Part shown: positions 3,584-32,000 of the stretch, piece by piece | How the letters are laid out: every line of letters begins with the position of its first letter | Position numbering within the stretch: position 1 is the first letter of the stretch | NCBI GenBank assembly: GCA_965219535.1 | Contig: CBDCNV010000002.1 | Coordinates: forward strand, 60,001-92,000 | Reading direction: 5' to 3' | From: Opitutales bacterium | Lineage (GTDB): Bacteria > Verrucomicrobiota > Verrucomicrobiia > Opitutales > PNEW01 | DNA length: 32,000 nt | The notes under the pieces: model-generated | What the model was told of the DNA's origin: nothing | What the model saw: the letters and a program-made list of their open reading frames with translations, nothing else | The model's database searches: none | Translations under genes and position numbers: made by a program

Positions 3584-3746
3584 TCGGCCAGTCTGATTTT
3601 TCAAGCCGAACAGTTATTGTAACCTCGATTAGGTCGAAACGAGTTGCAAGTAATAGAAAATCTACTGAGGATTTTGAAGAATACCCGTTAAGGATTTTAT
3701 CCCCAATAGCTGTGGGAATGGATCGCTAAATATTGTGGCGCAGCGG

Positions 3747-4331: not shown

Positions 4332-5039
4332 CTACTGTCCTTTCAACCTTTTGCAGATGCACGAATCATAGCTTTAATGGTCAAGGCCAATACTCGTCCA
4401 GCGACGACCTGACCACGACATCGACGATGTGCATCAGTCGTTCATTTCCGGCGGCTCCGGCCAGTCGAACTTCTACGTCGGAAATAAATTGGACGGGCTG
4501 TGGTTGGCCTTTGCAATGGGTTTAGTCGTCTTAGCTATCTGTTCTTCAGTTAAAGGATAATACGCTTTGGGGGATGGGTGGACAATTCACTCTCGTTTGC
4601 GGCTATAAGTGTATATAAATCCCATAAAATGCAACAAGTTTTTGGAAAATGTGACCTTTAAGCGGCTAGAAAAACAGAACATAGTATTCTTAGACACCCA
4701 GATACGGTCATAAACCGTGCATTTGACGGACTCAATCAGCGTCTGGGGGAGAGGCCCCTTCTATTACCCTGGATCGGTTGATCAATACAGGCTAGCGTCT
4801 TGATCTAAAGCACACGCAAGTACTGGACGCGGTAATTGGGGGGATGACATTCGTGAGACCGAAATGGAATCCTTTCCTGTACAAGATGGTGCATTTAGAG
4901 TTTGAGCGCTTCGATAAGCTCTGCGTCTTTTAGAACAATGCTCCATTAACCTGGTGAGCAGGCGAAAGGAACTCATCAGGTAGCATGTCACTATATTTCA
5001 ACGCCTGTTAGTTGTAATCAAAGTGGTCGTGACCACACA

Positions 5040-10277: not shown

Positions 10278-10469
10278 GAAGCTACAACTTATTATAAAAT
10301 TTATTTAAAACATGACAATGAACTATTTCAACAATTGATAACGATGCGTATTCGCAAGAAAATTATCAAATTTTTAATATATCTATCGATTTCTTGGCCT
10401 ATCCCTATAAACCTGGTACGAATAACGGGGTTCAATCAAATGTCCAAATAAGTTTTGAAAGCATGTACG

Positions 10470-12746
10470 ATGCCACTCAGTTCGATATCAAAAGAGCAAC
10501 AAGCTAAAGCTAAGCAAGAAGGTATGGATGAAATCCAGAGCCTAGCAGCTCATTTGAAGGATTTAATTCTCTCTCAACCGCCGCTAGACTTGCTCGGCTA
10601 CGTTTACGGCCAGATACTGATTGATTTGAATGCTGCCTCTTCATTAGGCGAAGAGGTTGCATCCAATGATGACAGTATCTCTCAGGTGCGTTATCAACGT
10701 AATCAGAAGCTTGAAAAGGTGCAGTTTGTTCTGGAATATATTCATGCAGTTTTTTCATCTTTTGAAGAAGGCAGTGCAGAATCGCTCGGTAAAAAAGTCT
10801 GCGAAGAGATATTAGATGTGGCAGAACAATTGCGATTTAAGACTCTGTTGCATTGTATGATCACATCGAATAGCATAGAGGATGGCATGTTCGGCCCTAA
10901 GACGGCAGAGGTAGAGTTTTTTGCCAAAACCAACTGGGTATCGATCAGAGGCAACCGGTATCAGGTTCTTGAAGAAGAGTTTTTCAACTTCACACTTGAG
11001 ACACATGACACAGTGCTCCGCCATACTTATGGGGCTAGCTCGAGTGAAATTGCTGCCGGCTTTCAGAGTATGGCTGATTCTGTGCGTACAGGGTACATGA
11101 GTGCAGTATATTCGATGATTGAACAATGGAAGTCTGTGCAAGAATTTACCGCAGAGCGTGGCAAAACCCTAAATGATGTAGCTGGAGAATGGTTAGCGGA
11201 ACAGCCGGAACGCTCAGAGGCGTTGTCGGGCAACTTCAGCGATTTCTTTAGTGGTGGCATCTGTAATATGAGCAAACATTCTAGTTTACCAGCGATTCTG
11301 CTGGAAGATTTGTCGTTCAAACGAGGCGAAGAAACAGAATTTTTTGAGGCCGGTTCATATTGCGGGACTCCACTGCGTACGCTGCCTGCTCGAAAGAAAC
11401 CTCTAGTCCAACTGCATGGTGAGTACTTCGCAATCGATCCATGTTTCCCTCGAGATTCTGCCTATCGGGCTCTACTCTGGAACCTGCTACAACGTAACCC
11501 TCAATACAAAAATGAATTCGATACTTTACAAAAAGAAATGAGCGAGGAGGCGTTCCAACGTATCTTCAGTGAGCAATTAGCGGGCTCAACCGTAAACCAG
11601 GATTTTTTTTACAAAGATATTGATACTGGCAATTGGTGCGAGAATGACACGCTTATTAGACTTGATGATATTCTAATTTTGATTGAAGCTAAGGCAGGTG
11701 CTGCTGCGTCCATTGCTTCACCGGAACTCGACTTTGACAGGCACGTTCGCTCTGTTCAGGATCTTATCATTAAAGCCTACGAGCAATGTCGCAGGTTTTT
11801 TCGCTATCTTAGTTCAGCAGACGCTGTTCCAATCTATAAGCAAGAAGCTGGTAATTATGTCGAACTCGACCGTGTCCGTTTAGCCGACTATAGGGTCGTT
11901 TTACCAATAGGGCTAACTGTGGAATCATTTACGCCGTTTTCTTCAATGTGTAAGGAATTGCCAGCTATCCAACCAGTGCTGGGTCGATATCCATTTATAT
12001 CAATTTCAATTGACGATCTGCTCGTGATTAATCGATTTCTGCCAACCACCGGCGAGTTGGCCCATTACTTTGAAGTCCGTCAAGCCATGGCAGGAATAAA
12101 GGGTTCAAAGTTATATGATGAGATAGACCATCTCGGTGCATACATCCAGAAAAACAGGATTGACCATGATTTAAAAAACCAACTAGCCAACGGTGCATCT
12201 ATGGTAATCTTGGATGGAATGTGCGAAATAGTTGATGCCTACTTCGAGGGAAAAGATTGGGTTTCTAACCCAATTCCAACGCAAGAGTTCCCGAACGATT
12301 TAAAGGCAATGCTTCACAGTCTCAACACGTCAAGAGCAGCGGGCTGGTTAAGCTGCGAAAGTCACATACGTAATTTTAGCCATGAATCGCGGGATATAAT
12401 TTCAAATACGCTCAAAAAATTACGCATGACCCTTAGTGAGTTTGACTATCGGTATTTCTTAGTTCCTGAACCGGAGCCGATAATGTTTTGGCTACAACTA
12501 ATAGGAACAGAACACAACGCCGACCTAATGCTGGAAAAAGCACAGGCAGGTGCTATCTCCGCAAACTCGTCGAAGATTATATGTGTTTTGGCTTGGGTGT
12601 CACTGAATGGCTACTATGCCAGTGCTGAACGTATATTTGTAGACATTCCATTAGAGAGAGACACTTCCAATTCCCACGTTTTACCGACGCGGAACGTATG
12701 GCTGCACGATGCGAACCGATTATTAAACCAGATAAGAATGTCGTAG
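10470..12746 (+). CDS. Large orphan protein with a central PD-(D/E)xK-like nuclease motif; ORF track starts at TTG 10455, first ATG at 10470
   Basis: Long intact ORF. The motif ..CENDTLIRLDDILILIEAKAG.. fits the D-x(n)-(D/E)-x-K pattern of restriction-endonuclease-fold proteins. I see no other recognisable domain. The C-terminus appears frameshifted (see next feature). Confidence 0.7.
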   Translation: MPLSSISKEQQAKAKQEGMDEIQSLAAHLKDLILSQPPLDLLGYVYGQILIDLNAASSLGEEVASNDDSISQVRYQRNQKLEKVQFVLEYIHAVFSSFEEGSAESLGKKVCEEILDVAEQLRFKTLLHCMITSNSIEDGMFGPKTAEVEFFAKTNWVSIRGNRYQVLEEEFFNFTLETHDTVLRHTYGASSSEIAAGFQSMADSVRTGYMSAVYSMIEQWKSVQEFTAERGKTLNDVAGEWLAEQPERSEALSGNFSDFFSGGICNMSKHSSLPAILLEDLSFKRGEETEFFEAGSYCGTPLRTLPARKKPLVQLHGEYFAIDPCFPRDSAYRALLWNLLQRNPQYKNEFDTLQKEMSEEAFQRIFSEQLAGSTVNQDFFYKDIDTGNWCENDTLIRLDDILILIEAKAGAAASIASPELDFDRHVRSVQDLIIKAYEQCRRFFRYLSSADAVPIYKQEAGNYVELDRVRLADYRVVLPIGLTVESFTPFSSMCKELPAIQPVLGRYPFISISIDDLLVINRFLPTTGELAHYFEVRQAMAGIKGSKLYDEIDHLGAYIQKNRIDHDLKNQLANGASMVILDGMCEIVDAYFEGKDWVSNPIPTQEFPNDLKAMLHSLNTSRAAGWLSCESHIRNFSHESRDIISNTLKKLRMTLSEFDYRYFLVPEPEPIMFWLQLIGTEHNADLMLEKAQAGAISANSSKIICVLAWVSLNGYYASAERIFVDIPLERDTSNSHVLPTRNVWLHDANRLLNQIRMS

Positions 12747-12969: not shown

Positions 12970-13630
12970 TTTGCTAGTGTCTGTCAGATCTGATCATTAC
13001 TAGTACACATAAAATCCATCGACCAACGCTCCTGGACAGCGCAAGCTGAGGGCGGTGAGAACTCCCTTTGCCGACACGCTTTTTAGACATTTTCCTGCGC
13101 ACTTCCAGTTCTTTAACCTTGTAGATCCAATAAACGCGTTTCTTTCCTAACAACCAGTCTTCCCGCTTTAATAACACCCTAATTCGCCAATACCCATAGT
13201 GCACGCGGACGGTGGCGATGTTACGGATACGCATTACCAGTGCGCGGTTCGTCCTTCATCACAGGTTGGTCGTTATAACTTGACAAATACAACGGCAGCA
13301 ACCTGCATGCCTAGCGTTTGCTCTCCTCACAGGTTTCCACTAAACAGTCAGCAAACACCATCTTGCGTACAGGTTTAATTCGGTTGAACCCCAAGCCCGT
13401 GTATTTACCGTCCCAGCGGTGGAAGGTCTTGCTCTGCTCACGCCTGACTCTCGGCACCCTCCGTCTGTCCTTTGATCCCTTTCTATCAGTCTTAGGACAT
13501 AGATCATTTGTGTTTTACGATAGCAGTTTCCCTTTGCTTTTCATGGAAGTTTTTTCCCTGTCTCTTATTAACTTTTCCACCCATCCGAGACTAAATCTTT
13601 GCTCGTCCAGTTTTAAGAGGACAAGTCACA
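12970..13630 (-). mobile_element. Truncated IS3-family (IS407-like lineage) left part: OrfA plus the N-terminus of OrfB
   Basis: 12974..13234 reads ..VHYGYWRIRVLLKREDWLLGKKRVYWIYK.. (OrfB N-terminus). Minus-strand hand translation of 13300-13545 gives MKSKGK...EQSKTFHRWDGKYTGLG with stops (OrfA). The terminus lies near 13630 (tgtgacttgtcc on the minus strand). Confidence 0.7.
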
Positions 13631-14074
13631 GTCCTTTTGTTTCATTAAACTTATCGAATTGATTCATCTCCACGAGGGACTATCCGCCAGAAACGATCTG
13701 CTTCACCAGTTGTTACCAGATAGAGATAGTATTTGCGGATCACTGATTCGGAGTTACCCACCTGAAGCGCGGCGTCTCCTACCGAGCGGAAGGATCCCAC
13801 GGTCATCGATATATAAGTATGACGAAGGACATTTTGGGTAAGTTTGCGCTCTTCACGGACATGAGCTAGCATGTCGGGGAACCTTCTTGTTGGAATGATC
13901 GGGTAGCAGGCAGGAGGATACTTCTCCAGCCAAAGACTAAGGTTGGGCTGGATTTTAATGGCACGCTTTTCCTTAACTTTCGAGACCTCCGGTTCGATAA
14001 GAATAATCCCGGTATCCATACGGATATGCTTGGGTTTGAGTTTGCTCATTTCACCGTGCTTCCAGTCGGGTCTG
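13299..14074. repeat. Copy 1 of a diverged direct repeat (IS3 OrfA region + IS end + integrase 3' part)
   Basis: Aligns by eye along its whole length with 21389-22150, same orientation, at very roughly three-quarters identity. Shared strings include ccacccat..gactaaatctttgctcgtccag, gagggactatcc.ccagaaacgatctgct and ctcctaccgagcggaagga.cccac.gtcatcga. Confidence 0.75.
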
Positions 14075-14876
14075 ATTCCTGCAAACAGGGCTAATGAGAA
14101 GTAAGGCACCATGCACCCGGATTCACCCCACCATAACCCGTCCCTGCTCTGCTCTTGCCACGATAAAATTCCAGCCACTCCATCAGTTCGGTTGCTTCAT
14201 TAGCAGAGTGAATCTCCGCGCTACCCATGCGTTGTTTTATTTTATACTGGGGGACTTCCAGAATTGGGTTTTCTCCAACATATTTTTTCGACGCACAGTA
14301 TTTGAAGAAAGTGCTTAGGTAACTACGGCGGTTATTCCATGTTTTAAGAGAGAGCACTGCTTTTGAGCAATGGTGTCGTGTGTCGAGGTAAGTATTAATC
14401 TCAGCAGGTTGAATTTCATTCACGATTCGTTCCGCGAATATACCCTTTAATTTTTTCATCTCACGAATGATGCCCTGCTCCTGGCAAAATGAGATGATAC
14501 CAAGCTCCATTTCCATGGATTTATGATCGCAATACTCTCAGACCGCCTCTTCGACCGTCATGGTCTCGGCAGCTACTTTATAATGCGCTAAAAATAGTTA
14601 ACCGCGAAGGTGAGCGGTTTATTGGACTTGGCTTGGTTGAGAAGATTAATAGCTGCAGTGGCCTCTTTGTTCTGCCGGTGGGACAGGGTTGTCCAAACGG
14701 TCTTCCCTTCGGATTGTTCGTTTAAATACCGGATAGATAACTGTTGACGCTCTGCGATGGCATCGTTGTGGGACTTGAAATTCTTGCGTATTTGCTTGCC
14801 GTTTAGGGTGCCGGATAAACGCCATGCTTCTGACCTGCTGAAGATATATAAGATTTTTCCTCATATTCTCTATCAT
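13651..14876 (-). pseudogene. Tyrosine recombinase / phage-type integrase, disrupted by several frameshifts and an in-frame stop
   Basis: 13651..14178 carries the catalytic C-terminus (..LRHTYISMTVGSFRSVGDAALQVGNSESVIRKYY..). 14091..14516 carries the SAM-like N-domain. Hand translation near 14600-14830 gives the arm-binding-type N-terminus ..EAWRLSGTLNGKQIRKNFKSHNDAIAERQQL.. in a third frame. Confidence 0.8.
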
Positions 14877-17537: not shown

Positions 17538-20117
17538 ATGAATTCGTGCCTATTTTTTACCAAAATATTCCGATCAATCTGCTTGAAGCACTTTCTGGTG
17601 CTGTGTTTGATGCTATTCCTGTTCTCCGATCCGCGTGTCTTAGCTCAGAATGAAGAGATTGTGGAACTCGAAGAATTAGTAGTGCTCGGTTCCCGCAGTC
17701 CATTACGCACGGTTGCCGATTCTCCAGTGCCGGTGGATGTGATCGAGCCCGATGCTTTACTTAATCTGGCCGATACGGACATGGATGATATGCTAAGAGC
17801 GATTATCCCCTCTTACAACGTCAACCAGCAACCCATCAGTGATGCCGCTACGCTGATGCGCCCGGCCAATCTGCGAGGGCTGCCCCCGGACGTCACTCTG
17901 GTCTTAATCAATGGCAAACGGCGTCATCGAGGCAGCGTGATTACTTTTGGAGGAGGAGGTATTTCGGATGGGGCGCAAGGTGCTGATCTTTCTGTCATCC
18001 CGGCCATTGCGCTCGATCGTGTGGAAGTCTTACACGACGGGGCATCCGCTCAGTATGGCTCCGACGCCATCGCCGGAGTTATTAATTTCGTGCTCAAGGA
18101 CAATCCCGATGGAGGGACGCTCAAAGCCCACTGGGGTGAGACCTACGATGGAGATGGCGATACTTTCACCGTTTCCACTAACATGGGCCTGCCGTTGACC
18201 GATGCGGGCTTTGCGAACTTCAGTCTAGAATACAAAGAAGCCCAGCCCACCAGCCGCAGCGTTCAGCGTGCCGATGCCCAGGCCCTGATAGAGGCGGGCA
18301 ACACCGAGGTGCGCACCCCTGCCGCACAAGTCTGGGGCGCTCCGGAGGTTAAATACGACTTTAAATTCTTTGCCAATGTGGGCCTCGACCTGGGCAACAG
18401 CGAAGTCTACTCCTTTGCTAACTGGGCAAAGCGGGAGATAGAAGGCGGTTTCTTTTTTCGCAACCCTAACACCCGCAACGGGGTGTTCAGGGGACCGGTG
18501 GTCGATGAGACCCCCACCATCCTGGTGGCCGATTTGACGGGCGATATGTCCGGGACCCCTCCCGTGGTCAAAGTTATCGAGAATGTGCCCGATGCGGCCG
18601 CTCTGGCCGCGGTGGCTGCGGACCCAAATTTATTTGCTTTTAACGAGCGCTTTCCCGGTGGGTTCACCCCTCAATTTGGAGGTACCCTGACAGACGTAAG
18701 CCTCGCCGTGGGTATCAGGGGGGAGTTGGATAACAGCTGGCTCTATGACCTGAGCGCCGTTTTCGGTCGTAGCAATTCCGACTTCTTCATCAAAAACACG
18801 ATCAATCCCCAACTGGCCACCCAACAAACCAACATCCCCACCCAATACGAACCCGGCGCCTACACCGAGACCGATCGCGTCGTCAATTTAGACCTCTCCA
18901 GACAATTAGACAACGATATTTTCCACTCCCCGCTCAATGTTGCCTTCGGCTTTGAGTATCGCGGTGAAAATTTCAAGATCGAAAACGGGGAGCTTAATTC
19001 TTTCTTTATCGACCCCATCCTCGCCGCCCAGGGTTTCGGGATCGGCTCCAACGGCTTCCCCGGCTTCAAGCCGGAGGACGCAGGAGAGGCTGACAGGGCC
19101 AGTTACGCCGCCTACCTCGACTTCGAAGCCGACGTGGTCAAGGATCTTTTAGTCGGTGCAGCGGTTCGCTATGAGGACTATGAAGACTTCGGGGATACCT
19201 TAAACGGCAAGATAACCGCTCGCAGACAGCTGACCGATAACTTTGCCCTGCGCGGCTCGTTGAGCACCGGGTTTCGCGCCCCGACGGTGGGGCAAACGAG
19301 CGTTCGCAATGTGAGCACTACATTCACCAATGGAAGACTGGCAGATCAGGCGACCCTGCCGCCCACTAATCCCATTTCGGTGCAAAAGGGCGGCAGGTTG
19401 CTGGAGCCGGAAACCTCCACTAATGTTGCCCTCGGCACGGTGCTTACCCTCGGTGATCTCAACTTGAGCATCGACTATTACAACATTACGTTGGAAGACC
19501 GGATCGCTCTCACCAGTGTCCAGATTTTAACGCAGGAGGATATAGACGCGCTGCTGGCTCAGGGGGTCGCCGATGCCTCCAGTTTCACCGGCATAAGATT
19601 CTTTACCAACGATTTCGATACCACTACCCAGGGAATCGACATCGTTGCCTCTTACTCCACGGATCTATTTGGTGGCGATAATACACTCTTCAGCTTCGCG
19701 GCCAACTGGAATGAGACCAAGGTTAACCGGTTCAATCCGGAGATCATCGATCCGCTGGTGCGGGTAGGGCAACTGGAAAAAAGCCTGCCCGAGGTCCGCT
19801 TCTCCCTGACTGCTAACCACTACAAGGGGCCTTGGCGGTTCCTCGGCCGCGTCCAATACTATGACGACTTCTTGGAGTTCCATGGGAATCAGGCTTCCCT
19901 GCCCATCAACGCCACTGCCAAGTGGTTCTTTGACGCAGAGGTGGCATACACTTTCAACGAGAGGGTAACCTTTGTGGCGGGCGCGCAGAACCTCTTTGAC
20001 AATTATCCGACCGAAAATCCTCATGCGGAGATTCTGGGGGCGAGATACCCTAGGGTTTCGCCCTATGGATTTAACGGCGGATTCTATTACTTCAAGGCCA
20101 TTTGGAAATTCCGCTAA
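17538..20117 (+). CDS. TonB-dependent outer-membrane receptor, 859 aa
   Basis: Hydrophobic N-terminal signal-like segment. Plug-domain start ELEELVVLGSRSP and GKRRHRG..SDAIAGVINFVLKD. Beta-barrel-like repeats with GFRAPT. Aromatic-rich C-terminal strand ..GFYYFKAIWKFR. Confidence 0.85.
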   Translation: MNSCLFFTKIFRSICLKHFLVLCLMLFLFSDPRVLAQNEEIVELEELVVLGSRSPLRTVADSPVPVDVIEPDALLNLADTDMDDMLRAIIPSYNVNQQPISDAATLMRPANLRGLPPDVTLVLINGKRRHRGSVITFGGGGISDGAQGADLSVIPAIALDRVEVLHDGASAQYGSDAIAGVINFVLKDNPDGGTLKAHWGETYDGDGDTFTVSTNMGLPLTDAGFANFSLEYKEAQPTSRSVQRADAQALIEAGNTEVRTPAAQVWGAPEVKYDFKFFANVGLDLGNSEVYSFANWAKREIEGGFFFRNPNTRNGVFRGPVVDETPTILVADLTGDMSGTPPVVKVIENVPDAAALAAVAADPNLFAFNERFPGGFTPQFGGTLTDVSLAVGIRGELDNSWLYDLSAVFGRSNSDFFIKNTINPQLATQQTNIPTQYEPGAYTETDRVVNLDLSRQLDNDIFHSPLNVAFGFEYRGENFKIENGELNSFFIDPILAAQGFGIGSNGFPGFKPEDAGEADRASYAAYLDFEADVVKDLLVGAAVRYEDYEDFGDTLNGKITARRQLTDNFALRGSLSTGFRAPTVGQTSVRNVSTTFTNGRLADQATLPPTNPISVQKGGRLLEPETSTNVALGTVLTLGDLNLSIDYYNITLEDRIALTSVQILTQEDIDALLAQGVADASSFTGIRFFTNDFDTTTQGIDIVASYSTDLFGGDNTLFSFAANWNETKVNRFNPEIIDPLVRVGQLEKSLPEVRFSLTANHYKGPWRFLGRVQYYDDFLEFHGNQASLPINATAKWFFDAEVAYTFNERVTFVAGAQNLFDNYPTENPHAEILGARYPRVSPYGFNGGFYYFKAIWKFR

Positions 20118-22150: not shown

Positions 22151-22484
22151 TAAACAAAGTTTCTCTTAATCTACTTCATAGGGAAATCTGGAGGTGCCAA
22201 TACAGGTACCGTTTCGATTAAACTTGTCTCCACCGGGCGCATAAATTTATTGTTTTGCATCACAAGGGTCTGTTAATCGAGATTATTAAATTCACTCAAA
22301 AATTATTGACCGATTCCTGGCTGAACCTTACCAAAAAAGTATGATTCCTGCCCATTCCTGCCAAACATTTTGAGGCAAGGTCAGGAAATTAGAGGAAAAT
22401 ATAAATTATTATTGTGCCGTTATTTAAGTATAACTAATTGTTAATAAGCAATTTATAAGGCATTATTGAGTCCCGTTCATAGTC

Positions 22485-22793
22485 GGTTACATCGAATCGT
22501 TCCATGCACGTTTTCGCGAGGAGTGTCTAAATCGTGAACAGCTGTGGACTTTGACCGAAGCCCGCGTGGTGATCGAAGATTGGCGCTGGCTTTACAATCA
22601 TGTTCGACCCCACCGCAGCCTCGGCAATATTACTCCACAACGTTTCGCTCAAAACCTCAATACCGAAGGCTCGGGCTCCATTCGGGCTACGCCCTCATTG
22701 CGCCCAAGCCTTGACTTCCTCTACCAACTTAACTTCAACATTAACTTCTCCAGACTAACTCTCTCAGTGGACCAGTTTGTGTAACCCGACCAG
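22485..22793 (+). mobile_element. 3' fragment of an IS3-family element (same lineage as 5040-6360)
   Basis: 22551..22784 reads MTEARVVIEDWRWLYNHVRPHRSLGNITPQRFA...LYQLNFNINFSRLTLSVDQFV, nearly identical to the C-terminus of ORF 5018..5488. Upstream hand translation gives GYIESFHARFREECLNREQLW. Confidence 0.8.
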
Positions 22794-23072: not shown

Positions 23073-24134
23073 CTAAAAGAGCAACTCCCGACAATCCCAG
23101 TCGAGAAACTGCCCCATTCTAGCTTCAAATGTCGAAAATCTTTTCCAAACTAAGGCAGGGAAAAGATTGGCAATAACCGAAAGTCTATAGTCATACAAAC
23201 AGTCATTCCAATCGTAACCCGATACGCCGCCCTCCAGAAGTCCGTTATAATAATACCGCAACAACCCTTCCTCCAGAGATCGACGTCGATCAGGTTCCTC
23301 ATCCGAAACAAGGTAACACAAATCATAAGTCCCAAGACCTCGCTTGTATGTCTCCCAATCAGAAAAATACAAAGCATTTCTCGACGAGTCCTTAGGGTAA
23401 AAGATATTATACTTATGCAAATCCCCATGCAAGAGCGTCAACCCACTCCCCCTTCCAATTCGCTCTAGATACAACCTTTCCCATTCTTCGACAGATTTAA
23501 GAACAAGCCCATGCATTTCTTGAGACAATTCATCCGAGAACTTTGATGCGAATCGAAGAAACTCTTCCTCTCTCCACAATCGGCAATGATCCTTCACGAC
23601 ATCCGCAGTCGATGCTTGTATCATCCGCAAAGGCCCCCCTGAAGCTCGCATAAAGTCTTCTCCCAGCAACTCCGGAGCATCCCACCATCCGGCATGAAAC
23701 TTCAATACCTCATCAATAATCTGTTTATACAGATCGATCGTAAAAGCCTCCCCCTTAGGGGGCTCAATATCATGCGTGTCAGATGCATCCTCGAAAAGGA
23801 AATAGCATTGCCGCGAAGATCTATCAAAATCAAAATCATAACGCCTCACCGTTGGAGGACTCGAAATCCGTGCTGCAATGTCATTATAGAAAATCGATTC
23901 ATCCAAACCGCCTCCGAACCAATCCTCCCGATATCGCTTCAAAATTATATTGCAATGCAGACCAACTTCAACATCACCAGAATAAGTAATTTTTAAAGGC
24001 GTTAAAAAGGCCGCCGTTGATTCAAACTCCTCGCCAATCTGCACATCCTCCACGAAACCGTCCGAAAGATATCCATTCTTTCTAAAACGTTCAGTCAACC
24101 AACTTGGGGTAATTTGCTCCGCACGAATCATCAA
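23073..24134 (-). CDS. Phosphotransferase, APH / choline-kinase-like protein kinase fold, 353 aa
   Basis: Brenner-type catalytic motif LLHGDLHKYNIF (HxDxxxxN) followed by YFSDWETY (D-W-E metal-binding region), at the spacing usual for aminoglycoside/ecdysteroid-kinase-like enzymes. Confidence 0.7.
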   Translation of the reverse strand: MMIRAEQITPSWLTERFRKNGYLSDGFVEDVQIGEEFESTAAFLTPLKITYSGDVEVGLHCNIILKRYREDWFGGGLDESIFYNDIAARISSPPTVRRYDFDFDRSSRQCYFLFEDASDTHDIEPPKGEAFTIDLYKQIIDEVLKFHAGWWDAPELLGEDFMRASGGPLRMIQASTADVVKDHCRLWREEEFLRFASKFSDELSQEMHGLVLKSVEEWERLYLERIGRGSGLTLLHGDLHKYNIFYPKDSSRNALYFSDWETYKRGLGTYDLCYLVSDEEPDRRRSLEEGLLRYYYNGLLEGGVSGYDWNDCLYDYRLSVIANLFPALVWKRFSTFEARMGQFLDWDCRELLF

Positions 24135-24393
24135 TCGACTCTCTTTGTTAATTAGCTCTCGCCTTACGGCACTCTGTTATTATCTTCAGTTAGGAAAGAG
24201 CATCAAAATGCCCAAGTCGAGAACAGATATCCAAATAATACCATTTATCAATAAGACTTGCATCAGTCAACTAGAGCTGAAGCACGGGACTACCTTTTAC
24301 CGAACAAAGAGACAAACCTTCTTGAGGCGATCGATTGATGCACCCTGGAAAAAGTGGACACGGAATTCTCTCTTAGAGAGGATCCCTACTTTG

Positions 24394-24765
24394 TCAAAGA
24401 AGAGACGTTTCAGCGTCGAGTTCAAGAAGGAAGCAGTGCGACTAATGCTGCTGGAAGGGCGTTCCGTCTCGTCCTCAACGCTTCGCTCCGGAGGCGTTTC
24501 TGTCTTGGGCGAGTGATATTCTGTCCCGATGCGGCAGCATCCACAGCTGCTACGAAGCTGGCCCCCTGGGGCTACTCCTGCACCGCAGGCTGGTCGAGCT
24601 TGGGATATCCAATCATGGACATGAATATGCCTCGAAAAGTTGGATAACAGTGCGGCTCTTGATATTGATAAATCAAGTAAACAAATAAGAACGTATACAT
24701 CAGAATTTAAGCAGGACGCAGTGAATATGATGCTTTCTAGCAAGGGCTCAATCGCCCGGAAATAG
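24394..24765 (+). pseudogene. Two short IS3-family OrfA (HTH) fragments
   Basis: ..SKKRRFSVEFKKEAVRLMLLEGRSV.. (end of ORF 24145..24516), and by hand translation ..KQIRTYTSEFKQDAVNMMLSSKGSIARK* (about 24670-24765). Confidence 0.5.
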
Positions 24766-25071
24766 CCTCGCTTGCCGGACTCGCTCCAATCACCCTCCAG
24801 TCCGGGCAATGGAAAGGGCGATACTTTTCTCGACAGCGGCCGATCCAGGGTCCACAGAGCTCTCTATCTCGCCGCCCTCAGCGCGTCTCGATACAACGAG
24901 ACTCTCAAAATGTCTTCTACAAATGCTAGAAAGCCCGCCAAGCTGGCACTATGTGCCGTGGCAAGAAAGCTGCTCACCGCACTTGGTCGTGACCACGACC
25001 AGGAGGGCTTGTACTTATCTCAGCCTCAGTGGGTCAACGTACAGCTACCGGCCCAAACAGGCCAGTAATAA
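24766..25071 (+). pseudogene. IS110-family transposase 3' fragment (frameshifted)
   Basis: Hand translation gives ASLAGLAPITLQSGQWKGR. In ORF 24772..25068, ..GRSRVHRALYLAALSASRYNETLK...KPAKLALCAVARKLLTAL matches the conserved C-terminal region of IS110/IS1111-type transposases. Confidence 0.65.
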
Positions 25072-25077
25072 AGCTCA

Positions 25078-26770
25078 GCGGTTGGTTCCGGCGCATTCCC
25101 GATGGGTATTCTGCAAACCCTCACCCTGGTACTGCGCCGTCTTGACCCCGACAACGCGCTTTGGGAGCAAATTCAGAAGAAGCGGGCCAAGGCCCGAGCC
25201 GGTGCGACGTTCGACACTCATGATCAAGCGGCTCGAAGCGAGGCTCTCCGCGAGATCAGCGACACTTTCGAAAAGTACCGACAGTCGGACTTCGGCCGAA
25301 AGCTCTACCTCATACAGAATGCCATCTACGGCGTGGATATCCAACCCATCGCCTGCCAAATTGCCAAGTTGCGCTTTTTCATCTCACTCGTCATTGAGCA
25401 GGACCCTGACCTCGGCGCGCCCAATCTTGGCATCAAACCGTTACCCAATCTGGAGACACGGCTCGTCGCCGCCGACAGCTTGCTCAGCTTCAAGGCCGAA
25501 ACCGGCGACTTACTTCACCATAATGCCGTGGCGTCGAAGCAACGGGAGGTCGCGGCGGTACGTGATCGCTACTTCCTGGCGGACAGCCGGCCGAAGAAGC
25601 TTGAATGTATGCAGGCGGAGAAACGTCTGCGCGACGAGTTGCAGGACATATTGGAGACCGAGCGCCGAATCTGGGTTACAGTCCAGGATCGGGACATAGA
25701 AAGCATGGCGGCGAGATTTCCCAACGCGGATACCCGTGAGACCTTTCGAGCGAAGGAGCTTGGCAAGCTCGCTCTACGACAACGCGAGTACGATGAGACT
25801 TTGGCCGCGGCCCGTTTGATTGCCGAATGGGATCCCTACGACCAGAACGCTCACGCCGGCTGGTTCGACCCCGAATACATGTTCGACGTTTCGGCTGGTT
25901 TCGATGTCGTGATCGGCAACCCGCCTTATATCCAGTTGCAGAAGGACGGAGGTCGCGCGAGAAAGAAATACCAAAACGCCGGCTACGAGACGTTCGCAAG
26001 TACTGGGGACATCTACCAACTCTTCTACGAACGAGGCTGCGGGCTGCTCAAACCACGCGCTGGCGTATTGGCCTACATCACTTCTAACAGTTGGCTGAAG
26101 GCAGAATACGGCAAACCCCTTCGCCAGTGGTTCGCCGAACGGCACATGCCGCTGCAACTGATCGAAATGGGCAAGAACGTCTTCGAGAACGCAATAGTGG
26201 ATACAGCGGTGCTGATTGTCAGAAACGGCACGGGCCACCCTGTGACGTGCCCGGCGGTGGACGTCGATCAGGCATCGGAAAACCGATTCCCGCCGCCCAA
26301 AGGAGACTGGGGGACGCTACAACCGGAGGGTGATCGACCATGGATGGCGCTTTCGTCGGTCGAGCGCTCTGTAATGGAGAAGATGGAAACCGTCGGCACA
26401 CCTCTAAGGGAGTGGGATATTTCCATTTACCGTGGAATTCTCACCGGCTACAACGACGCTTTCATCATCGACACCGCAGTAAGAGACCGCCTTATCGCAG
26501 AGGATCCATCGTCAGAAGAAATACTCAAGCCGATTCTCAGGGGTCGTGATATAGCGCGTTACCGTGCAAACTGGGCTGACCTTTGGCTGATATCAACGTT
26601 TCCCTCGCTCGGTCTAGACATTGACGCTTATCCGGCGATCAAGCGACATCTCTTGTCTTTTGGGAAAGGACGTCTGTCTCAGGAAGGACGTCAATTGCCA
26701 GGAGGAGGTCGATCAAGGAAGAAGACATCCAATGCATGGTACGAACTTCAGGATACTTGCTCTTACCATG
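25078..26770. repeat. Left arm of the perfect 1693-bp inverted repeat
   Basis: It is the reverse complement of 27607-29299 (paired coordinates sum to 54377). I checked the nucleotides at both ends. Mirrored ORFs in several frames have identical translations in the supplied track. Confidence 0.95.
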
Positions 26771-27210
26771 AGGAATTTGGAAAAGCGAAGCTGTTTTGGA
26801 TGCACATGACACCGTATGGGAGGTTCGTATTGGCCGAGCCAAATGTCGTATGCAACCAGAAATGCTTCATGGTAACGGGAATGAACCTCGAATACCTTTG
26901 TGCCGTCCTTAACAGTAAGCTGGTGACTTGGCTTGTGAGACGCACTGCTGTAACGACAGGAATGGGGCTTCCTCAGTGGGACAAGTTCACCGTTGAACGC
27001 GTCCCGGTTGTGCAACCGGACCACCTTGTCATGGACGAGATCGGGGACATCGTGGAGTCTATTCTTGCCGCCCTAGAGCGCGGCGACGTCCAAGAGGTGG
27101 CCAGACTCCAGCGGATGATCGACAGCCACGTTTTTGGGCTTTACGAGCTGACGGAAGTCGAACGAGAGGCGGTTTCAAGAGCTATCAGTGATTCGTTGCC
27201 AATTCAATGA
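25078..27210 (+). pseudogene. 5'-truncated second copy of the DNA methyltransferase gene carrying an alternative C-terminal module (silent cassette candidate)
   Basis: Starts inside SAM-binding motif I (..AVGSGAFPMGIL..). ORF 25102..27210 is identical to residues 539-1094 of the 1234-aa protein, then diverges for its last 146 aa. There is no N-terminal region, and an IS110 remnant abuts its 5' edge. Confidence 0.8.
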
Positions 27211-30200
27211 CTTCCACCTCCTCTGCGGAGATCCCGTAGGTCTCGTAGATTACCTCATTGATCCGCTTCTCGATCTGCGCAAGTTGCTTCTCGTCGGACG
27301 ACGTAACTGATCGAGCCTCGTCGACTAGCCTACACAGTGTATCGGCGGCAGACGGACGTAGTATAGCCACGGGTATCGACTCGACGTACACCTTCTTCCA
27401 CCGAGGCACGCCCATACCTGAGGTAGGCGCTGTTTTCAGAATGTACCAGTGTGCGAGTCGCGAATTGAGGAACGCACAGAGGTAGTTCATTCGCTCGCCA
27501 GTGATCATGAACGTTGTTGCCTCGATGAACATTCCGCTTTCGTCGTACGCAAATCTGCCCCGGTCGACCAGTTCTATCCAGATCACCTTCTCCGACGCAA
27601 ATGTGCCATGGTAAGAGCAAGTATCCTGAAGTTCGTACCATGCATTGGATGTCTTCTTCCTTGATCGACCTCCTCCTGGCAATTGACGTCCTTCCTGAGA
27701 CAGACGTCCTTTCCCAAAAGACAAGAGATGTCGCTTGATCGCCGGATAAGCGTCAATGTCTAGACCGAGCGAGGGAAACGTTGATATCAGCCAAAGGTCA
27801 GCCCAGTTTGCACGGTAACGCGCTATATCACGACCCCTGAGAATCGGCTTGAGTATTTCTTCTGACGATGGATCCTCTGCGATAAGGCGGTCTCTTACTG
27901 CGGTGTCGATGATGAAAGCGTCGTTGTAGCCGGTGAGAATTCCACGGTAAATGGAAATATCCCACTCCCTTAGAGGTGTGCCGACGGTTTCCATCTTCTC
28001 CATTACAGAGCGCTCGACCGACGAAAGCGCCATCCATGGTCGATCACCCTCCGGTTGTAGCGTCCCCCAGTCTCCTTTGGGCGGCGGGAATCGGTTTTCC
28101 GATGCCTGATCGACGTCCACCGCCGGGCACGTCACAGGGTGGCCCGTGCCGTTTCTGACAATCAGCACCGCTGTATCCACTATTGCGTTCTCGAAGACGT
28201 TCTTGCCCATTTCGATCAGTTGCAGCGGCATGTGCCGTTCGGCGAACCACTGGCGAAGGGGTTTGCCGTATTCTGCCTTCAGCCAACTGTTAGAAGTGAT
28301 GTAGGCCAATACGCCAGCGCGTGGTTTGAGCAGCCCGCAGCCTCGTTCGTAGAAGAGTTGGTAGATGTCCCCAGTACTTGCGAACGTCTCGTAGCCGGCG
28401 TTTTGGTATTTCTTTCTCGCGCGACCTCCGTCCTTCTGCAACTGGATATAAGGCGGGTTGCCGATCACGACATCGAAACCAGCCGAAACGTCGAACATGT
28501 ATTCGGGGTCGAACCAGCCGGCGTGAGCGTTCTGGTCGTAGGGATCCCATTCGGCAATCAAACGGGCCGCGGCCAAAGTCTCATCGTACTCGCGTTGTCG
28601 TAGAGCGAGCTTGCCAAGCTCCTTCGCTCGAAAGGTCTCACGGGTATCCGCGTTGGGAAATCTCGCCGCCATGCTTTCTATGTCCCGATCCTGGACTGTA
28701 ACCCAGATTCGGCGCTCGGTCTCCAATATGTCCTGCAACTCGTCGCGCAGACGTTTCTCCGCCTGCATACATTCAAGCTTCTTCGGCCGGCTGTCCGCCA
28801 GGAAGTAGCGATCACGTACCGCCGCGACCTCCCGTTGCTTCGACGCCACGGCATTATGGTGAAGTAAGTCGCCGGTTTCGGCCTTGAAGCTGAGCAAGCT
28901 GTCGGCGGCGACGAGCCGTGTCTCCAGATTGGGTAACGGTTTGATGCCAAGATTGGGCGCGCCGAGGTCAGGGTCCTGCTCAATGACGAGTGAGATGAAA
29001 AAGCGCAACTTGGCAATTTGGCAGGCGATGGGTTGGATATCCACGCCGTAGATGGCATTCTGTATGAGGTAGAGCTTTCGGCCGAAGTCCGACTGTCGGT
29101 ACTTTTCGAAAGTGTCGCTGATCTCGCGGAGAGCCTCGCTTCGAGCCGCTTGATCATGAGTGTCGAACGTCGCACCGGCTCGGGCCTTGGCCCGCTTCTT
29201 CTGAATTTGCTCCCAAAGCGCGTTGTCGGGGTCAAGACGGCGCAGTACCAGGGTGAGGGTTTGCAGAATACCCATCGGGAATGCGCCGGAACCAACCGCC
29301 GGATCAAGCACTCTTAGGCCAGCGATGGCACCTACCAGTGATTCTTTTTCTTCCGGTTCGAAGAAGTCGCCGGCATCGGCCTTCGCGTCTTCCCAGTTGA
29401 GCAGGTAACGCAGCCGTTCCCGCCAGAATTCATCGCCGCGGATGGTGGGTTGGGCATTCCCGGCCAAAGCGTCAACCAAGGCTTCGCCGACCATATAGTC
29501 CACCACCGGCCGCGGCGTGTAATAGGAGCCGGTAGCATTGCGGGCGGTTGCGCGTGTCTCTGGATTGTAGGCAGCGAGTAGGTTCTCGAAGACACGGCCT
29601 AGAAGCTCGGGGTCAAGCGCAACCTCGCGGTCGAGGGGCGTGCTCTCCTCGACAGTGAACTTGAAATGGCGAAAGAGGGTAAACAGTCCCTCCTGATCGA
29701 GAAGCAGACGCGCAGGCACGCACAACTCCTCGTCCTTGATCAGATCCTCAGTGAAGGCGTCAACCAGCCCGCCGTCCGCTACGGTGAAATCGTCCAGGCA
29801 GTCGAACAGTCCGCCATTGACGAACGGAACCTTCTCCAGGTTTCTGGCGAAAGCGTCCGGGTCGGTGAGCAAGTCGTGGTATCGGTACTTGGTGAAGTCC
29901 CGGTGGGAACTGGACGTTTGATTGCTGAAGCCACGCTTGTCGATTTCCGTGTTCAGGGTGGCGAAGAACAGGTTTTGCAGCACTGCGCGGTAATAGTCTG
30001 TCCGGTTAGACGTGTGGCGCTTGAGCGTAGCGCGCGAGAATTCTTCATCGAACAAGGTATCGGGGACCAACCCCTTTTCCTTCATGAACCAGATGAAGAG
30101 CAGCCTTGTGATGAGCCGGATGACGTGGCGTTCGGTACCTTCTTCGCCTGCGCCGTCGTCCGGGAAGCGGCACTCGGCGACAGCCCGCTCAAACCAAGCG

Positions 30201-30889
30201 AACAGTTTGCGGTAGAAACGCTTGTTCAGTGTTTCGATATCGAGCACCCGCTCCCACTCCTCGTGCAGCTCATCGAAACTACGGACCCCCGACTCGCGCA
30301 TGCGGGAGAACGCGAGGTCGGAAAGAATCTCGATATGCGCCCGATGCGGCTCGGCCAAGCGGATATCCTTCACCAAAGTCACCCTGTCCAACACGTCACG
30401 GCTATCGTCGCGTGTGTGCACGCGCCGGTGTGTGGTGGCCAGTGTCAACGTCGAACCGTGACGGAACAGGAGAATAACCGGCATCGCGAAGAGGCGGTTC
30501 ACGGCACGAGTCGTCTCCGCCAAGTGCGTGCGCGAATAGGCATCCCGCGCCATGTCCACCGCAAGGAAGAGGAAGGACTCTATCCGGCCCTGGTCGAACC
30601 CATGAGTCTCGAACAGGTCGGACTGCCGGACGATCTCTCCGGCTGTGAACTGGAATACGATTTCGACGGCGGTCCATGATTCGAATAGCTTGCGCTGCTT
30701 TTTGGTCAGCTTGTTGCTGTGCGCGAAGCGCTCGAGGAATTCCTGGACGCTGCCGACCTCTGCAGTCCGCTGGCTGCTGTAACCGAGCTCGTCGAGCAAC
30801 GCCGTAGCCCCCACCCTCAATGGCGCATCGTCGGCGAGATTGCCCAGTGCTTCGAGTGTTCCACAGGCTACGACTAAGCCGTTAGTCAT
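27185..30889 (-). CDS. Large gamma-class N6-adenine DNA methyltransferase, Eco57I/PglX-like with a TaqI_C-like C-terminal specificity region, 1234 aa
   Basis: Motif X GSYYTPRPVVDYMV, motif I VLDPAVGSGAFPMGIL, motif IV DVVIGNPPYIQLQ. Downstream come ITSNSWLKAEYGKPLRQWF, GILTGYNDAFII and AWYELQD, as in PglX / type IIG / type IIL enzymes. I recognised no PD-(D/E)xK or HNH nuclease motif in the N-terminal 500 aa. Confidence 0.85.
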   Translation of the reverse strand: MTNGLVVACGTLEALGNLADDAPLRVGATALLDELGYSSQRTAEVGSVQEFLERFAHSNKLTKKQRKLFESWTAVEIVFQFTAGEIVRQSDLFETHGFDQGRIESFLFLAVDMARDAYSRTHLAETTRAVNRLFAMPVILLFRHGSTLTLATTHRRVHTRDDSRDVLDRVTLVKDIRLAEPHRAHIEILSDLAFSRMRESGVRSFDELHEEWERVLDIETLNKRFYRKLFAWFERAVAECRFPDDGAGEEGTERHVIRLITRLLFIWFMKEKGLVPDTLFDEEFSRATLKRHTSNRTDYYRAVLQNLFFATLNTEIDKRGFSNQTSSSHRDFTKYRYHDLLTDPDAFARNLEKVPFVNGGLFDCLDDFTVADGGLVDAFTEDLIKDEELCVPARLLLDQEGLFTLFRHFKFTVEESTPLDREVALDPELLGRVFENLLAAYNPETRATARNATGSYYTPRPVVDYMVGEALVDALAGNAQPTIRGDEFWRERLRYLLNWEDAKADAGDFFEPEEKESLVGAIAGLRVLDPAVGSGAFPMGILQTLTLVLRRLDPDNALWEQIQKKRAKARAGATFDTHDQAARSEALREISDTFEKYRQSDFGRKLYLIQNAIYGVDIQPIACQIAKLRFFISLVIEQDPDLGAPNLGIKPLPNLETRLVAADSLLSFKAETGDLLHHNAVASKQREVAAVRDRYFLADSRPKKLECMQAEKRLRDELQDILETERRIWVTVQDRDIESMAARFPNADTRETFRAKELGKLALRQREYDETLAAARLIAEWDPYDQNAHAGWFDPEYMFDVSAGFDVVIGNPPYIQLQKDGGRARKKYQNAGYETFASTGDIYQLFYERGCGLLKPRAGVLAYITSNSWLKAEYGKPLRQWFAERHMPLQLIEMGKNVFENAIVDTAVLIVRNGTGHPVTCPAVDVDQASENRFPPPKGDWGTLQPEGDRPWMALSSVERSVMEKMETVGTPLREWDISIYRGILTGYNDAFIIDTAVRDRLIAEDPSSEEILKPILRGRDIARYRANWADLWLISTFPSLGLDIDAYPAIKRHLLSFGKGRLSQEGRQLPGGGRSRKKTSNAWYELQDTCSYHGTFASEKVIWIELVDRGRFAYDESGMFIEATTFMITGERMNYLCAFLNSRLAHWYILKTAPTSGMGVPRWKKVYVESIPVAILRPSAADTLCRLVDEARSVTSSDEKQLAQIEKRINEVIYETYGISAEEVEVIELATNH
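27607..29299. repeat. Right arm of the perfect 1693-bp inverted repeat (inside the intact methyltransferase gene)
   Basis: As for the left arm. It corresponds to codons 531-1094 of CDS 27185..30889. Confidence 0.95.
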
Positions 30890-32000
30890 TGCGTTTGCGT
30901 TCCAGGTTCCTCGTGATGACTAGCCATGTAATAAGGTCGAATTTGCCGAGCGGTTCTGGTTCCGGTAATTTCTCTGTGATTACGGCGCCGCGGTTGCGAC
31001 TGAGCCCGGTCAACTCCGCATCCCGGAAAGAACGGGCGATGCTGCGCAGTGCCGCAGCGAGCATGGCATCATGCTTCTCCATGCGTTGGCCCTGTTCGGT
31101 TTCCCGGTCGAAGGCGTCCTCCAGCGCGGTAATCGCTTCGGGACGGCCCGCCGCAAGCGCCCGGAACAGGGCAAGGCATTGTCGGGATTGCCGGAAGGTG
31201 TAGCGCACGGTGCCATCCTCGCGTACATAGACTAGGAAGTATGGCCAGAGGCGGTTCGGGGTGCGTGCGGCGGGGTCGCCGAAGCGTCTCAGGCAGAAAA
31301 TCGCACCGGGCCGCACCAGATCGGTCGCGCTGCCCTTGGTCTCCGGTTGGCCCTCATCCACAACGGCATGGATGCCCAACGGCGCAGTTTCCAGAGCTTC
31401 TCGATTCTGCTGGATATAGTGAAGCAGGTCGGCGACGAAATCATCGAGCGTAAGATCGTTTAAGCCAACGCCGTCATCGGTTTCCTCAATATCGAGAATC
31501 TCGTCGCGCATACGCGTCAACTGCCGGTCGCGGAAGGTAAGTTCCAACTGGACTGCCTCGGTGTGTTCGTCCTTGGTGCGGTCGTCGCGGTTGAGCGGGT
31601 CGTCGAGGCCGGTGGCAGCTGCATCGGCAAGCGCCATCCGCGCTTCGACGCGATTCTTCAGATCCAGATAGCAGTCGAGGTTCTCAGTCGGCCAGAAATT
31701 GGTCATGGCGACCTGTCGATTGCGGCTGCCAAGTCGGTCGATCCGGCCGAAACGTTGCATAAGCCGAACCGGATTCCAATGGATGTCATAGTTCACGACG
31801 AGGTCGCAGTCCTGAAGGTTCTGTCCCTCTGACAGGCAGTCGGTCGCGATCACGATGTCGATTTCACAGTCTTGACTGCCGGCCTGTTGCGCCCTAGGGG
31901 CAAACCGCTCCAGAATGTCGATAAACCGGGATGTTCCCGTGGTGCTCCGGTTGCCGTCCCCGCCGGTCACCAGCGCAATGTGAACGCCGAGCTCGTTGCG
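30882..32000 (-). CDS. SNF2/SF2-type helicase, C-terminal part only (5' end outside the window)
   Basis: Helicase motifs V-VI: ATDCLSEGQNLQDCDLVVNYDIHWNPVRLMQRFGRIDRLGS. The frame stays open to position 32000 (..RNELGVHIALVTGGDG..). The stop TAA at 30884..30882 overlaps the methyltransferase ATG (ATGACTAA, an 8-nt overlap). Confidence 0.8.
   Translation of the reverse strand, partial: RNELGVHIALVTGGDGNRSTTGTSRFIDILERFAPRAQQAGSQDCEIDIVIATDCLSEGQNLQDCDLVVNYDIHWNPVRLMQRFGRIDRLGSRNRQVAMTNFWPTENLDCYLDLKNRVEARMALADAAATGLDDPLNRDDRTKDEHTEAVQLELTFRDRQLTRMRDEILDIEETDDGVGLNDLTLDDFVADLLHYIQQNREALETAPLGIHAVVDEGQPETKGSATDLVRPGAIFCLRRFGDPAARTPNRLWPYFLVYVREDGTVRYTFRQSRQCLALFRALAAGRPEAITALEDAFDRETEQGQRMEKHDAMLAAALRSIARSFRDAELTGLSRNRGAVITEKLPEPEPLGKFDLITWLVITRNLERKRND

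Follow-up and report, generated by a model that had tools for sequence, protein, structure and literature searches.

A putative inversion-driven specificity switch at a type IIG-like methyltransferase locus of an Opitutales bacterium

The window analysed here, a stretch of 32,000 nucleotides (nt) from an Opitutales bacterium (contig CBDCNV010000002.1, positions 60,001 to 92,000 of the forward strand), carries on its minus strand a full-length gene for a methyltransferase of 1234 amino acids (aa) (27185-30889), and directly behind it a convergent, inverted, 5'-truncated copy of the same gene (25078-27210, plus strand). This locus probably forms the variable core of a specificity switch that works by DNA inversion (a "shufflon") and belongs to a type IIG-like N6-adenine methyltransferase. 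The support comes from the anatomy of the locus, from the same arrangement in 14 of 49 relatives, from module pairs found in both orientations, from purifying selection on both modules and from the placement of the variable part in the recognition domain. Recombination between the two inverted arms would flip an 836-nt centre and replace the last 140 codons of the methylase in frame with a 146-codon alternative, giving a 1240-aa enzyme that would differ in loops predicted to read the base pairs beside the target adenine; the methylase would work with the SNF2 helicase encoded upstream (a PLD-SNF2 helicase-nuclease in relatives). The feature is real and had been read largely correctly in a first-pass annotation made from the DNA letters, and it may still act as a switch in this organism.

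Anatomy of the inverted repeat and its two modules

Base-by-base comparison revealed that the proximal arm (27607-29299) and the distal arm (25078-26770), both recorded without strand, are perfectly complementary over 1693 nt with 0 mismatches. The whole structure is a 4.2-kb near-palindrome with its symmetry centre at 27188/27189. The proximal arm lies inside the expressed gene and covers codons 531-1094 as well as the first base of codon 1095, and the distal arm is a silent, 5'-truncated copy of codons 531-1094 that starts within the S-adenosylmethionine (SAM)-binding motif I (..AVGSGAF). The identity of the arms ends abruptly (mismatches set in at 26771-26774 and 26780-26784), and the boundary falls at codon 1094/1095 (..CSYH), one base into codon 1095, because the codons of the two modules start at 26770 on the plus strand and at 27607 on the minus strand. 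The sharp switch from identity to divergence at a codon boundary, as first described, was recovered, but the module starts given with it were off by 1 nt.

The plus copy and the minus gene have identical translations through ..AWYELQDTCSYH / ..NAWYELQDTCSYH and then continue with 146 aa (plus) versus 140 aa (minus). The "minus" module (27185-27607, minus strand, 140 aa and stop, GTFASEKVIWIELVDRGRF..ELATNH) is the currently expressed sub-module 2 of the target recognition domain (TRD), and the "plus" module (26770-27210, plus strand, 146 aa and stop, EEFGKAKLFWMHMTPYGRF..SDSLPIQ) is a silent alternative sub-module 2. Both modules end in TGA (27208-27210 for plus and 27185-27187 for minus), and their 3' ends overlap in antisense over 26 nt that include both stops (27185-27210, without strand); these positions, like the symmetry centre, reproduce those of the first-pass annotation. 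The overlap of these two modules in the related locus L079 is about 20 nt, judged from the ends of tblastn hits. That the modules are clearly homologous, as had been claimed, was borne out by global alignment (score 194, versus -45 +/- 13 for shuffled sequences, z = 18.5), and a recount of identical residues among the first 80 ungapped positions gave exactly the 33 that had been counted by hand. Neither window module contains a stop or frameshift.

Relatives, junctions and selection on the modules

The census covered 50 loci, including the window, in which the C-terminal region could be detected and downstream sequence extended for 2.5 kb or more. A convergent inverted partial copy directly after the methylase gene was present in 15 of them, that is, in the window and in 14 of its 49 relatives, and the methylase homologues are 1180-1250 aa long. 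In the cassette-bearing relatives the repeats span 54-250 nt, and the distal copy usually begins at window-equivalent residue ~977 (976-980; 952 in L063) and runs to the C-terminus, with the distal cassette of L084 beginning at window-equivalent residue 1017. A tyrosine recombinase is encoded just beyond the cassette in 11 of the 14 cassette-bearing relatives, homologous enzymes lying past the distal arm in L001, L004, L006, L014, L015, L018, L023, L031, L042, L059 and L079. In L002 the tyrosine recombinase past the distal arm is broken by insertion sequence (IS) elements, in L016 it lies upstream, and in L063 a serine invertase (Resolvase) takes its place. The two closest full-length relatives, L083 and L084, carry the same tyrosine recombinase. 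This layout is typical of gene-altering inversions driven by a recombinase. Among the cassette loci found, the window alone has arms longer than 250 nt, and it alone lacks an identified recombinase gene; a 1092-nt repeat in L035 was considered as a second long-arm case and rejected, as it lies outside the methylase gene.

Many of the related loci come from long-read metagenome-assembled genomes (MAGs), and their lineages include sponge-associated Poribacteria, Latescibacterota, Dehalococcoidia/SAR202 and Spongiisociaceae. Neither the exact window protein nor its inverted chimera was found in a collection of 5.8 billion proteins, where the best matches were 69-74% identical, and the genome of the window itself was not among the related loci obtained from the genome-contig scan (best 62%). 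In L001, a 74%-identical relative, both cassettes (13104-14446) are out of frame, the proximal one just past the first junction described below (J1) and the distal one at the second (J2); these breaks may reflect genuine off-states or indel errors of long reads.

The repeat of most relatives stops at ..LWLI, which defines junction J1 (residue 1037/1038). Beyond it lies the variable part, made up of sub-module 1 (residues 1038-1094) and sub-module 2 (from residue 1095 to the C-terminus). Sub-module 1 occurs in an A type (DTHNGY..TPYNLRNCAYH) and a B type (STFPSL..RKKTSNAWYELQDTCAYH; also read STFPSL..RKKT..WYELQDTCAYH). An indel of about 11 aa separates the two types. One A and one B are combined at nearly all cassette loci (noted in L004, L006, L014, L015, L018, L023, L042, L059, L079 and L083), a pairing seen across Alphaproteobacteria, Latescibacterota, Dehalococcoidia and other groups, and among 120 full-length homologues the types of sub-module 1 and sub-module 2 assort independently. 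In the window sub-module 1, which is variable in most relatives, is identical in both copies: it is of the B type (aa 1038-1094, ..RKKTSNAWYELQDTCSYH; 27608-27778, minus strand) with its mirror copy at 26599-26769 on the plus strand. The stretch equivalent to the J1 repeat (aa 977-1037, ..RANWADLWLI; 27779-27961, minus strand; mirror copy at 26416-26598, plus strand) is the least variable segment (0.96 bits) in an alignment of the C-terminal 444 residues. Of the variable region of the family, it is only the second half that differs between the two copies in the window, which qualifies the first-pass reading.

A second, short repeat nested at the conserved CAYH junction (J2) was found in five loci (32 nt with 97% complementarity in L063, 46 nt with 91% in L023, 51 nt with 84% in L042, 79 nt with 80% in L006 and 76 nt with 74% in L018), with arm spacings of 788-821 nt in the four tyrosine-recombinase loci and 668 nt in L063. 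In L063, a Planctomycetaceae MAG, the two nested repeats (245 nt and 32 nt) lie within 3483-5883. There the methylase open reading frame (ORF) is broken at 932 aa, and sub-module 1 stands on the opposite strand, so that this locus is apparently a captured intermediate inversion state. L084, whose methylase is 68% identical to that of the window, has a single 245-nt repeat with B-type sub-module 1 in both copies. Its arms end at J2 (CAYH), as do those of the window, and their spacing is 846 nt versus 836 nt in the window. The window follows this pattern, but its arms extend outward to codon 531.

The same two modules recur in other genomes. For the minus module, orthologues were identified as the distal module of L079 (71%), the proximal module of L083 (72%) and in protein P0001 (72%), and for the plus module as the proximal, expressed module of L079 (68%), the distal module of L083 (68%) and in proteins P0039 (88%) and P0033 (79%). 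The closest full-length relative, L083, has proximal B-type sub-module 1 with minus-type sub-module 2 (84% and 72% identical to the window) and distal A type with plus type (68%). In L079 the A and plus types are expressed (68%) and the B and minus types are silent (84% and 71%). The window and L083 therefore express the B and minus combination and L079 the A and plus combination, so the same module pair exists in three genomes and in both states of the switch. Inversion in the window would join B-type sub-module 1 to plus-type sub-module 2, a combination already present in the natural full-length proteins P0033 (86% and 79%) and P0021 (72% and 62%).

Between the window and L079, the nonsynonymous (dN) and synonymous (dS) divergences are 0.20-0.21 and 0.95-1.09 for the plus module, and 0.19-0.20 and 1.3-1.9 for the minus module. 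Both modules are under purifying selection (dN/dS of about 0.1-0.2), including while silent in one lineage. With arms that are 100% identical and modules that are 68-72% identical to their orthologues in L079 and L083, the earlier argument for concerted evolution of the arms together with maintained diversity of the cassettes holds. Furthermore, the silent plus module (26770-27207) is 88% identical to the C-terminal module of P0039, but the full-length proteins are only 59% identical, which suggests that cassettes have been exchanged horizontally between lineages.

The enzyme and its DNA-recognition domain

The 1234-aa protein, which currently carries the minus module, matches the Pfam families PF07669 (Eco57I, 1.9e-34) for its catalytic domain and PF12950 (TaqI_C, 4.3e-14) for its TRD. 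The TaqI_C match covers residues 1014-1174 (53.2 bits, cutoff 26.5), and the equivalent stretch of the plus copy also passes the cutoff (43.4 bits). Because the match spans 1014-1174, the breakpoint at 1094/1095 lies inside the recognition domain. The best PADLOC model was REase_MTase_IIG (3e-145), for which the best listed matched stretches ran from residue 349 onward, and no Pfam nuclease domain was detected in residues 1-430, where MmeI_hel and DUF4391 matched only below threshold. By its domains and its neighbour, the enzyme is predicted to be a type IIG-like N6-adenine methyltransferase downstream of an SNF2 helicase.

The helicase gene (30882-32000, minus strand) runs off the window, which holds only its 3' part with a Helicase_C domain, and it overlaps the methylase start by 8 nt. 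This part matched the PADLOC "HKD+Snf2" model C3a139 (1.6e-35), and it shares 73% identity with the L084 helicase (1123 aa, with PLDc_2 and SNF2 domains) over residues 752-1122 of the latter. Since only the C-terminal part lies inside the window, the N-terminal PLD region would lie past its edge, and by analogy with the relatives the protein is presumed to be a PLD-SNF2 helicase-nuclease. The helicase matches point to a two-gene system of helicase and methylase. Judging from the gene order, it is probably the separate PLD-SNF2 protein that cleaves DNA. The neighbours in L001, L002, L083 and L084 are likewise a helicase upstream and a cassette with a recombinase downstream.

The closest solved relative by sequence is CamA of C. 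difficile, and its contacts (PMC8187626) were mapped onto the window enzyme through a HMMER alignment at about 20% identity, so that residue positions follow from that alignment only. Of the 13 TRD residues with which CamA contacts bases (PMC8187626), 7 fall in the variable module (Tyr455, Lys456, Ser472, Ala473, Ser514, Ile517 and Tyr521); the placement of the last three is extrapolated, as they lie just past the aligned stretch, near GVPRWKK (minus) versus GLPQWDK (plus). The other 6 (Gln346, Ile349, Arg425, Gln438, Trp439 and Arg441) fall before the breakpoint, in the part that is now constant, and in CamA they read base pairs 1-3, while Tyr455, Lys456, Ser472 and Ala473 act on base pairs 4-6 beside the flipped adenine (PMC8187626). 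At the positions of these four residues the window modules differ (IEL versus MHM and EA versus NQ), and the conserved WYELQ loop of the window aligns with CamA Gln438, Trp439 and Arg441. Several variable stretches lie at or near the mapped contacts, between the conserved scaffold motifs GRFAY, YLCAxLNS and SGMG.

An AlphaFold model of residues 791-1234 had a mean predicted local distance difference test (pLDDT) score of 74.6, and averages over ten-residue blocks were about 80-97 over most of the variable module, with 60-63 at its start and reduced values in several further blocks. For the alternative chimera, the model showed the same order of secondary-structure elements with similar confidence. 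The best structural matches of the C-terminal 444 residues were CamA-DNA complexes (E = 5e-20, template modelling (TM) score 0.61), followed in order by M.BseCI, BpuSI, MmeI, BrxX (the E. coli protein, a distant match at E = 8e-10) and M.TaqI. The TaqI_C match, the structural match to CamA-DNA complexes and the contact mapping together support the original placement of the tails in the DNA-recognition half, the variable module aligning with about half of the base-contacting TRD residues of CamA. The two forms may methylate, and hence restrict, different motifs.

Origin of the window form, rival explanations and genomic surroundings

The window most plausibly represents a derived form, in which the arms were extended, sub-module 1 was homogenised and the recombinase was lost. 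Its ancestor would have been a recombinase-driven switch like that of L084 or L083. A break or an IS-associated rearrangement distal to the cassette may have been followed by repair primed at the conserved J2 homology, in which copying ran back along the expressed gene, across sub-module 1 and J1 and for 1.3 kb into the methylase body. Such copying would have replaced the original distal sequences together with the recombinase gene and overwritten the A-type sub-module 1, and the repeat would have grown from roughly 200 nt to 1693 nt. Present-day switching, if any, would proceed by RecA-type homologous recombination on the long perfect arms or by a recombinase encoded elsewhere. Long perfect inverted arms should be efficient substrates of homologous recombination, so inversion may continue without a dedicated enzyme, and a recombinase may act in trans because the ancestral J1 repeat sequence is still present inside the arms.

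The distal flank is consistent with such a rearrangement. A frameshifted remnant of the C-terminus of an IS110-family transposase (24770-25068, plus strand), recognised in six-frame translation, ends 9 nt before the distal arm, and after correction of the frameshift it matched Pfam PF02371 (Transposase_20, 2.3e-8, 34.7 bits, cutoff 21.3). Degraded mobile elements are stacked over 24100-25068, where two starts of IS3-type OrfA (HTH_Tnp_1) precede the IS110 remnant. These IS110 and IS3 remnants occupy the place where relatives carry the integrase.

Several points weigh against the favoured reading of the locus. A tblastn search of the 32-kb window with 12 recombinases of the family (E <= 5) gave chance-level hits only and no recombinase homologue, and Pfam searches of the ORFs at 23073-24809 returned a kinase-like protein and nothing recombinase-like; with no recombinase in the window, programmed switching may have stopped. 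In addition, the inversion is unobserved in this population, the closest recorded protein being 74% identical. The growth of the arms is a reconstructed scenario, and the predicted difference in specificity rests on the CamA alignment at about 20% identity.

The main rival explanation starts from the missing recombinase. It supposes a fossil switch, in which the enzyme was lost through an IS-mediated rearrangement, the locus was locked on the minus module, the plus copy is a decaying remnant and the arms date from one recent repair or duplication. The IS110 and IS3 remnants exactly at the integrase position of relatives, surroundings with few long ORFs and several IS fragments, and the erasure of the A-type sub-module 1, unlike nearly all relatives, all fit this explanation, and we regard it as unlikely but well worth keeping in view. 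It does not account for a 146-codon plus module that has stayed free of stops and frameshifts, with dN/dS of about 0.2 across the lineages of the window and L079. Moreover, a 1693-nt perfect repeat with an 836-nt spacer is a good substrate for RecA, which makes full locking unlikely, and a recombinase could act in trans from beyond the window. We give much less weight to an assembly artefact, in which a true repeat of about 200 nt in a population of mixed orientation made the assembler fold back and produce a false 1.7-kb distal arm. Invertible regions are hard to assemble, the arms are exactly identical and the window stands alone among 15 cassette loci in having arms longer than 250 nt. However, a foldback is improbable because the distal arm ends cleanly at 25078 and runs on into 25 kb of unrelated sequence without a contig end; the junction also abuts a degraded IS remnant, as a biological rearrangement scar would, and two different modules at the centre do not make a simple foldback.

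Very unlikely, too, is an independent convergent gene, that is, an expressed paralogue (a truncated methylase or a specificity subunit) encoded by the uninterrupted 702-aa ORF on the plus strand (25102-27210), which has an ATG start and scores for both Eco57I and TaqI_C. That first ATG is an internal Met of ..FPMGILQ.., after the GSGAF glycine loop, in a copy that starts within SAM motif I, and the distal cassettes of the 14 relatives are short copies from window-equivalent residue ~950-980 (1017 in L084); the length of the ORF here is due solely to an arm that duplicates the expressed gene exactly. The ORF probably has no expression signals of its own. A scan of 24000-31200 for promoters and terminators gave no more sites than chance would: the single promoter-like site was on the minus strand (24206-24179; 3.1 expected by chance), none was found on the plus strand, and no terminator-like site was found between the two convergent ORF ends. 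A switch that retargets a bacteriophage exclusion (BREX) system, with the methylase as PglX, is suggested by PglX models that match weakly and locally over the catalytic motif, by the distant structural match to E. coli BrxX and by known PglX inversions (PMC9881135), but it appears extremely unlikely. The enzyme scored far under the NCBIfam cutoffs (64 bits versus 500 for BREX_1_MTaseX, 59.5 versus 400 for BREX_2 and 32.9 versus 900 for BREX_6), its sole visible upstream neighbour in the window is the helicase C-terminus, and no BrxC or PglZ family was present on the listed neighbours of the methylase in L001, L002, L083 and L084. On these scores and this gene context PglX identity was rejected, which corrects the frame suggested by the comparison in the first-pass annotation.

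The inversion-driven switch that we favour belongs to a kind of system already known, since inversions in Cj0031-type enzymes have been published. Milman, Yelin and Kishony (Nucleic Acids Research, NAR, 2023; PMC9881135) confirmed by long reads programmed inversions in a "Type II RM enzyme homologous to Cj0031" (RM, restriction-modification) of Bacteroides ovatus CP083813.1, which has a PLD+SNF helicase coding sequence (CDS) adjacent upstream and homologues in three phyla. In the same study Eco57I-domain methylases were 16-fold enriched among predicted inversion targets, and some invertible regions had no nearby recombinase (PMC9881135). As in that class, inverted repeats in the window overlap the methylase CDS and flank the invertible segment, the opposite partial copy encodes a diverged alternative end whose reading frame inversion would preserve, and the Eco57I-type methylase, with homologues over several phyla, follows the gene of an SNF2 helicase (PLD-SNF2 in relatives). 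The likeness to the B. ovatus enzyme is one of published description and gene context, not of sequence comparison. Unlike that class, the window has no site-specific recombinase in or beside the locus, and only the last 140-146 codons of its methylase vary; its arms measure 1693 nt versus 54-250 nt in the relatives examined here. Neither a term search of a recent paper on BREX-related systems nor the abstract of one on MANTIS led to this system of helicase and methylase.

The BREX type 1 PglX shufflons of Lacticaseibacillus rhamnosus and L. casei (PMC9881135) are also similar in that a segment of a gamma-class N6-adenine methylase, the enzyme responsible for the specificity of defence, is exchanged by inversion, and in that a recombinase beside the cassettes and nested repeats give intermediate states, to be compared with L063. 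The family and the partner genes of the window system differ from those of BREX, and the variable part of PglX is mid-protein with a constant C-terminus, whereas in the window the C-terminus itself is exchanged. In the inversion systems of Type I RM hsdS genes (Mycoplasma pulmonis hsd and Streptococcus pneumoniae SpnD39III), two specificity halves assort, silent promoterless cassettes are exchanged by a tyrosine recombinase and the motif changes. The combinations of sub-module 1 (A or B) with sub-module 2 resemble those of TRD1 with TRD2 in hsdS, but here the recognition domain is fused to the methylase without a separate S subunit, and there are two cassettes, not several. CamA (PDB 7LNI and others; PMC8187626), the best sequence and structural match to the C-terminal 444 residues, differs in being a 577-aa orphan enzyme without phase variation, at ~20% identity.

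Because the general phenomenon is already published, the value of the locus lies in its details and not in a new principle. What may be added here is a long-arm, recombinase-less variant, the J1/J2 organisation, the A/B dimorphism and a variable half placed on base-contacting loops beside the adenine. A broader proposal, which we put forward tentatively, is that a site-specific shufflon turned into a recombinase-independent switch after loss of the integrase and an approximately sevenfold expansion of the repeat to 1.7 kb, with flipping by RecA, and that the family as a whole has a two-tier recognition domain (A/B sub-module 1 combined with diverse sub-module 2, with junctions after LWLI and CAYH) in at least 5 phyla, many of them sponge-associated, with cassettes exchanged horizontally. 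The locus raises the question of whether long homology can stand in for a dedicated recombinase in running a switch. When the recognition module of a defence methylase is switched, the DNA that a cell marks as its own and the DNA that it attacks change with it, and methylation-dependent gene expression can be rewired as well. Together with its relatives, the locus offers a small, naturally occurring collection of recognition half-domains that can be swapped at defined junctions, useful for predicting and engineering the specificity of TaqI_C-type domains.

In all, the 32 kb of the window contain only 18 ORFs that reach 150 aa, with a very low density of long ORFs over 1-25000, and a scan for tRNAs in the window returned none. 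Integrase-core fragments were found at 2867-3352, 5018-5488 and 7736-8263, GC content swings between 39% and 61%, and 1-25000 looks like a pseudogene-rich and IS-rich region. An ORF of 763 aa (10455-12746, plus strand) had no Pfam or NCBIfam match, and an ORF of 353 aa (23073-24134, minus strand), which lies in a stretch of very strongly negative GC skew (-0.33), resembles the APH / ecdysteroid-kinase family. Additionally, fragments of an IS3-family integrase core (rve_3) at 5035-5333 and 22484-22782 form a 299-nt inverted repeat with 90% complementarity, which brackets about 17 kb including a gene for a TonB-dependent receptor (17538-20117); the bracketed stretch could be a composite element or an invertible segment.

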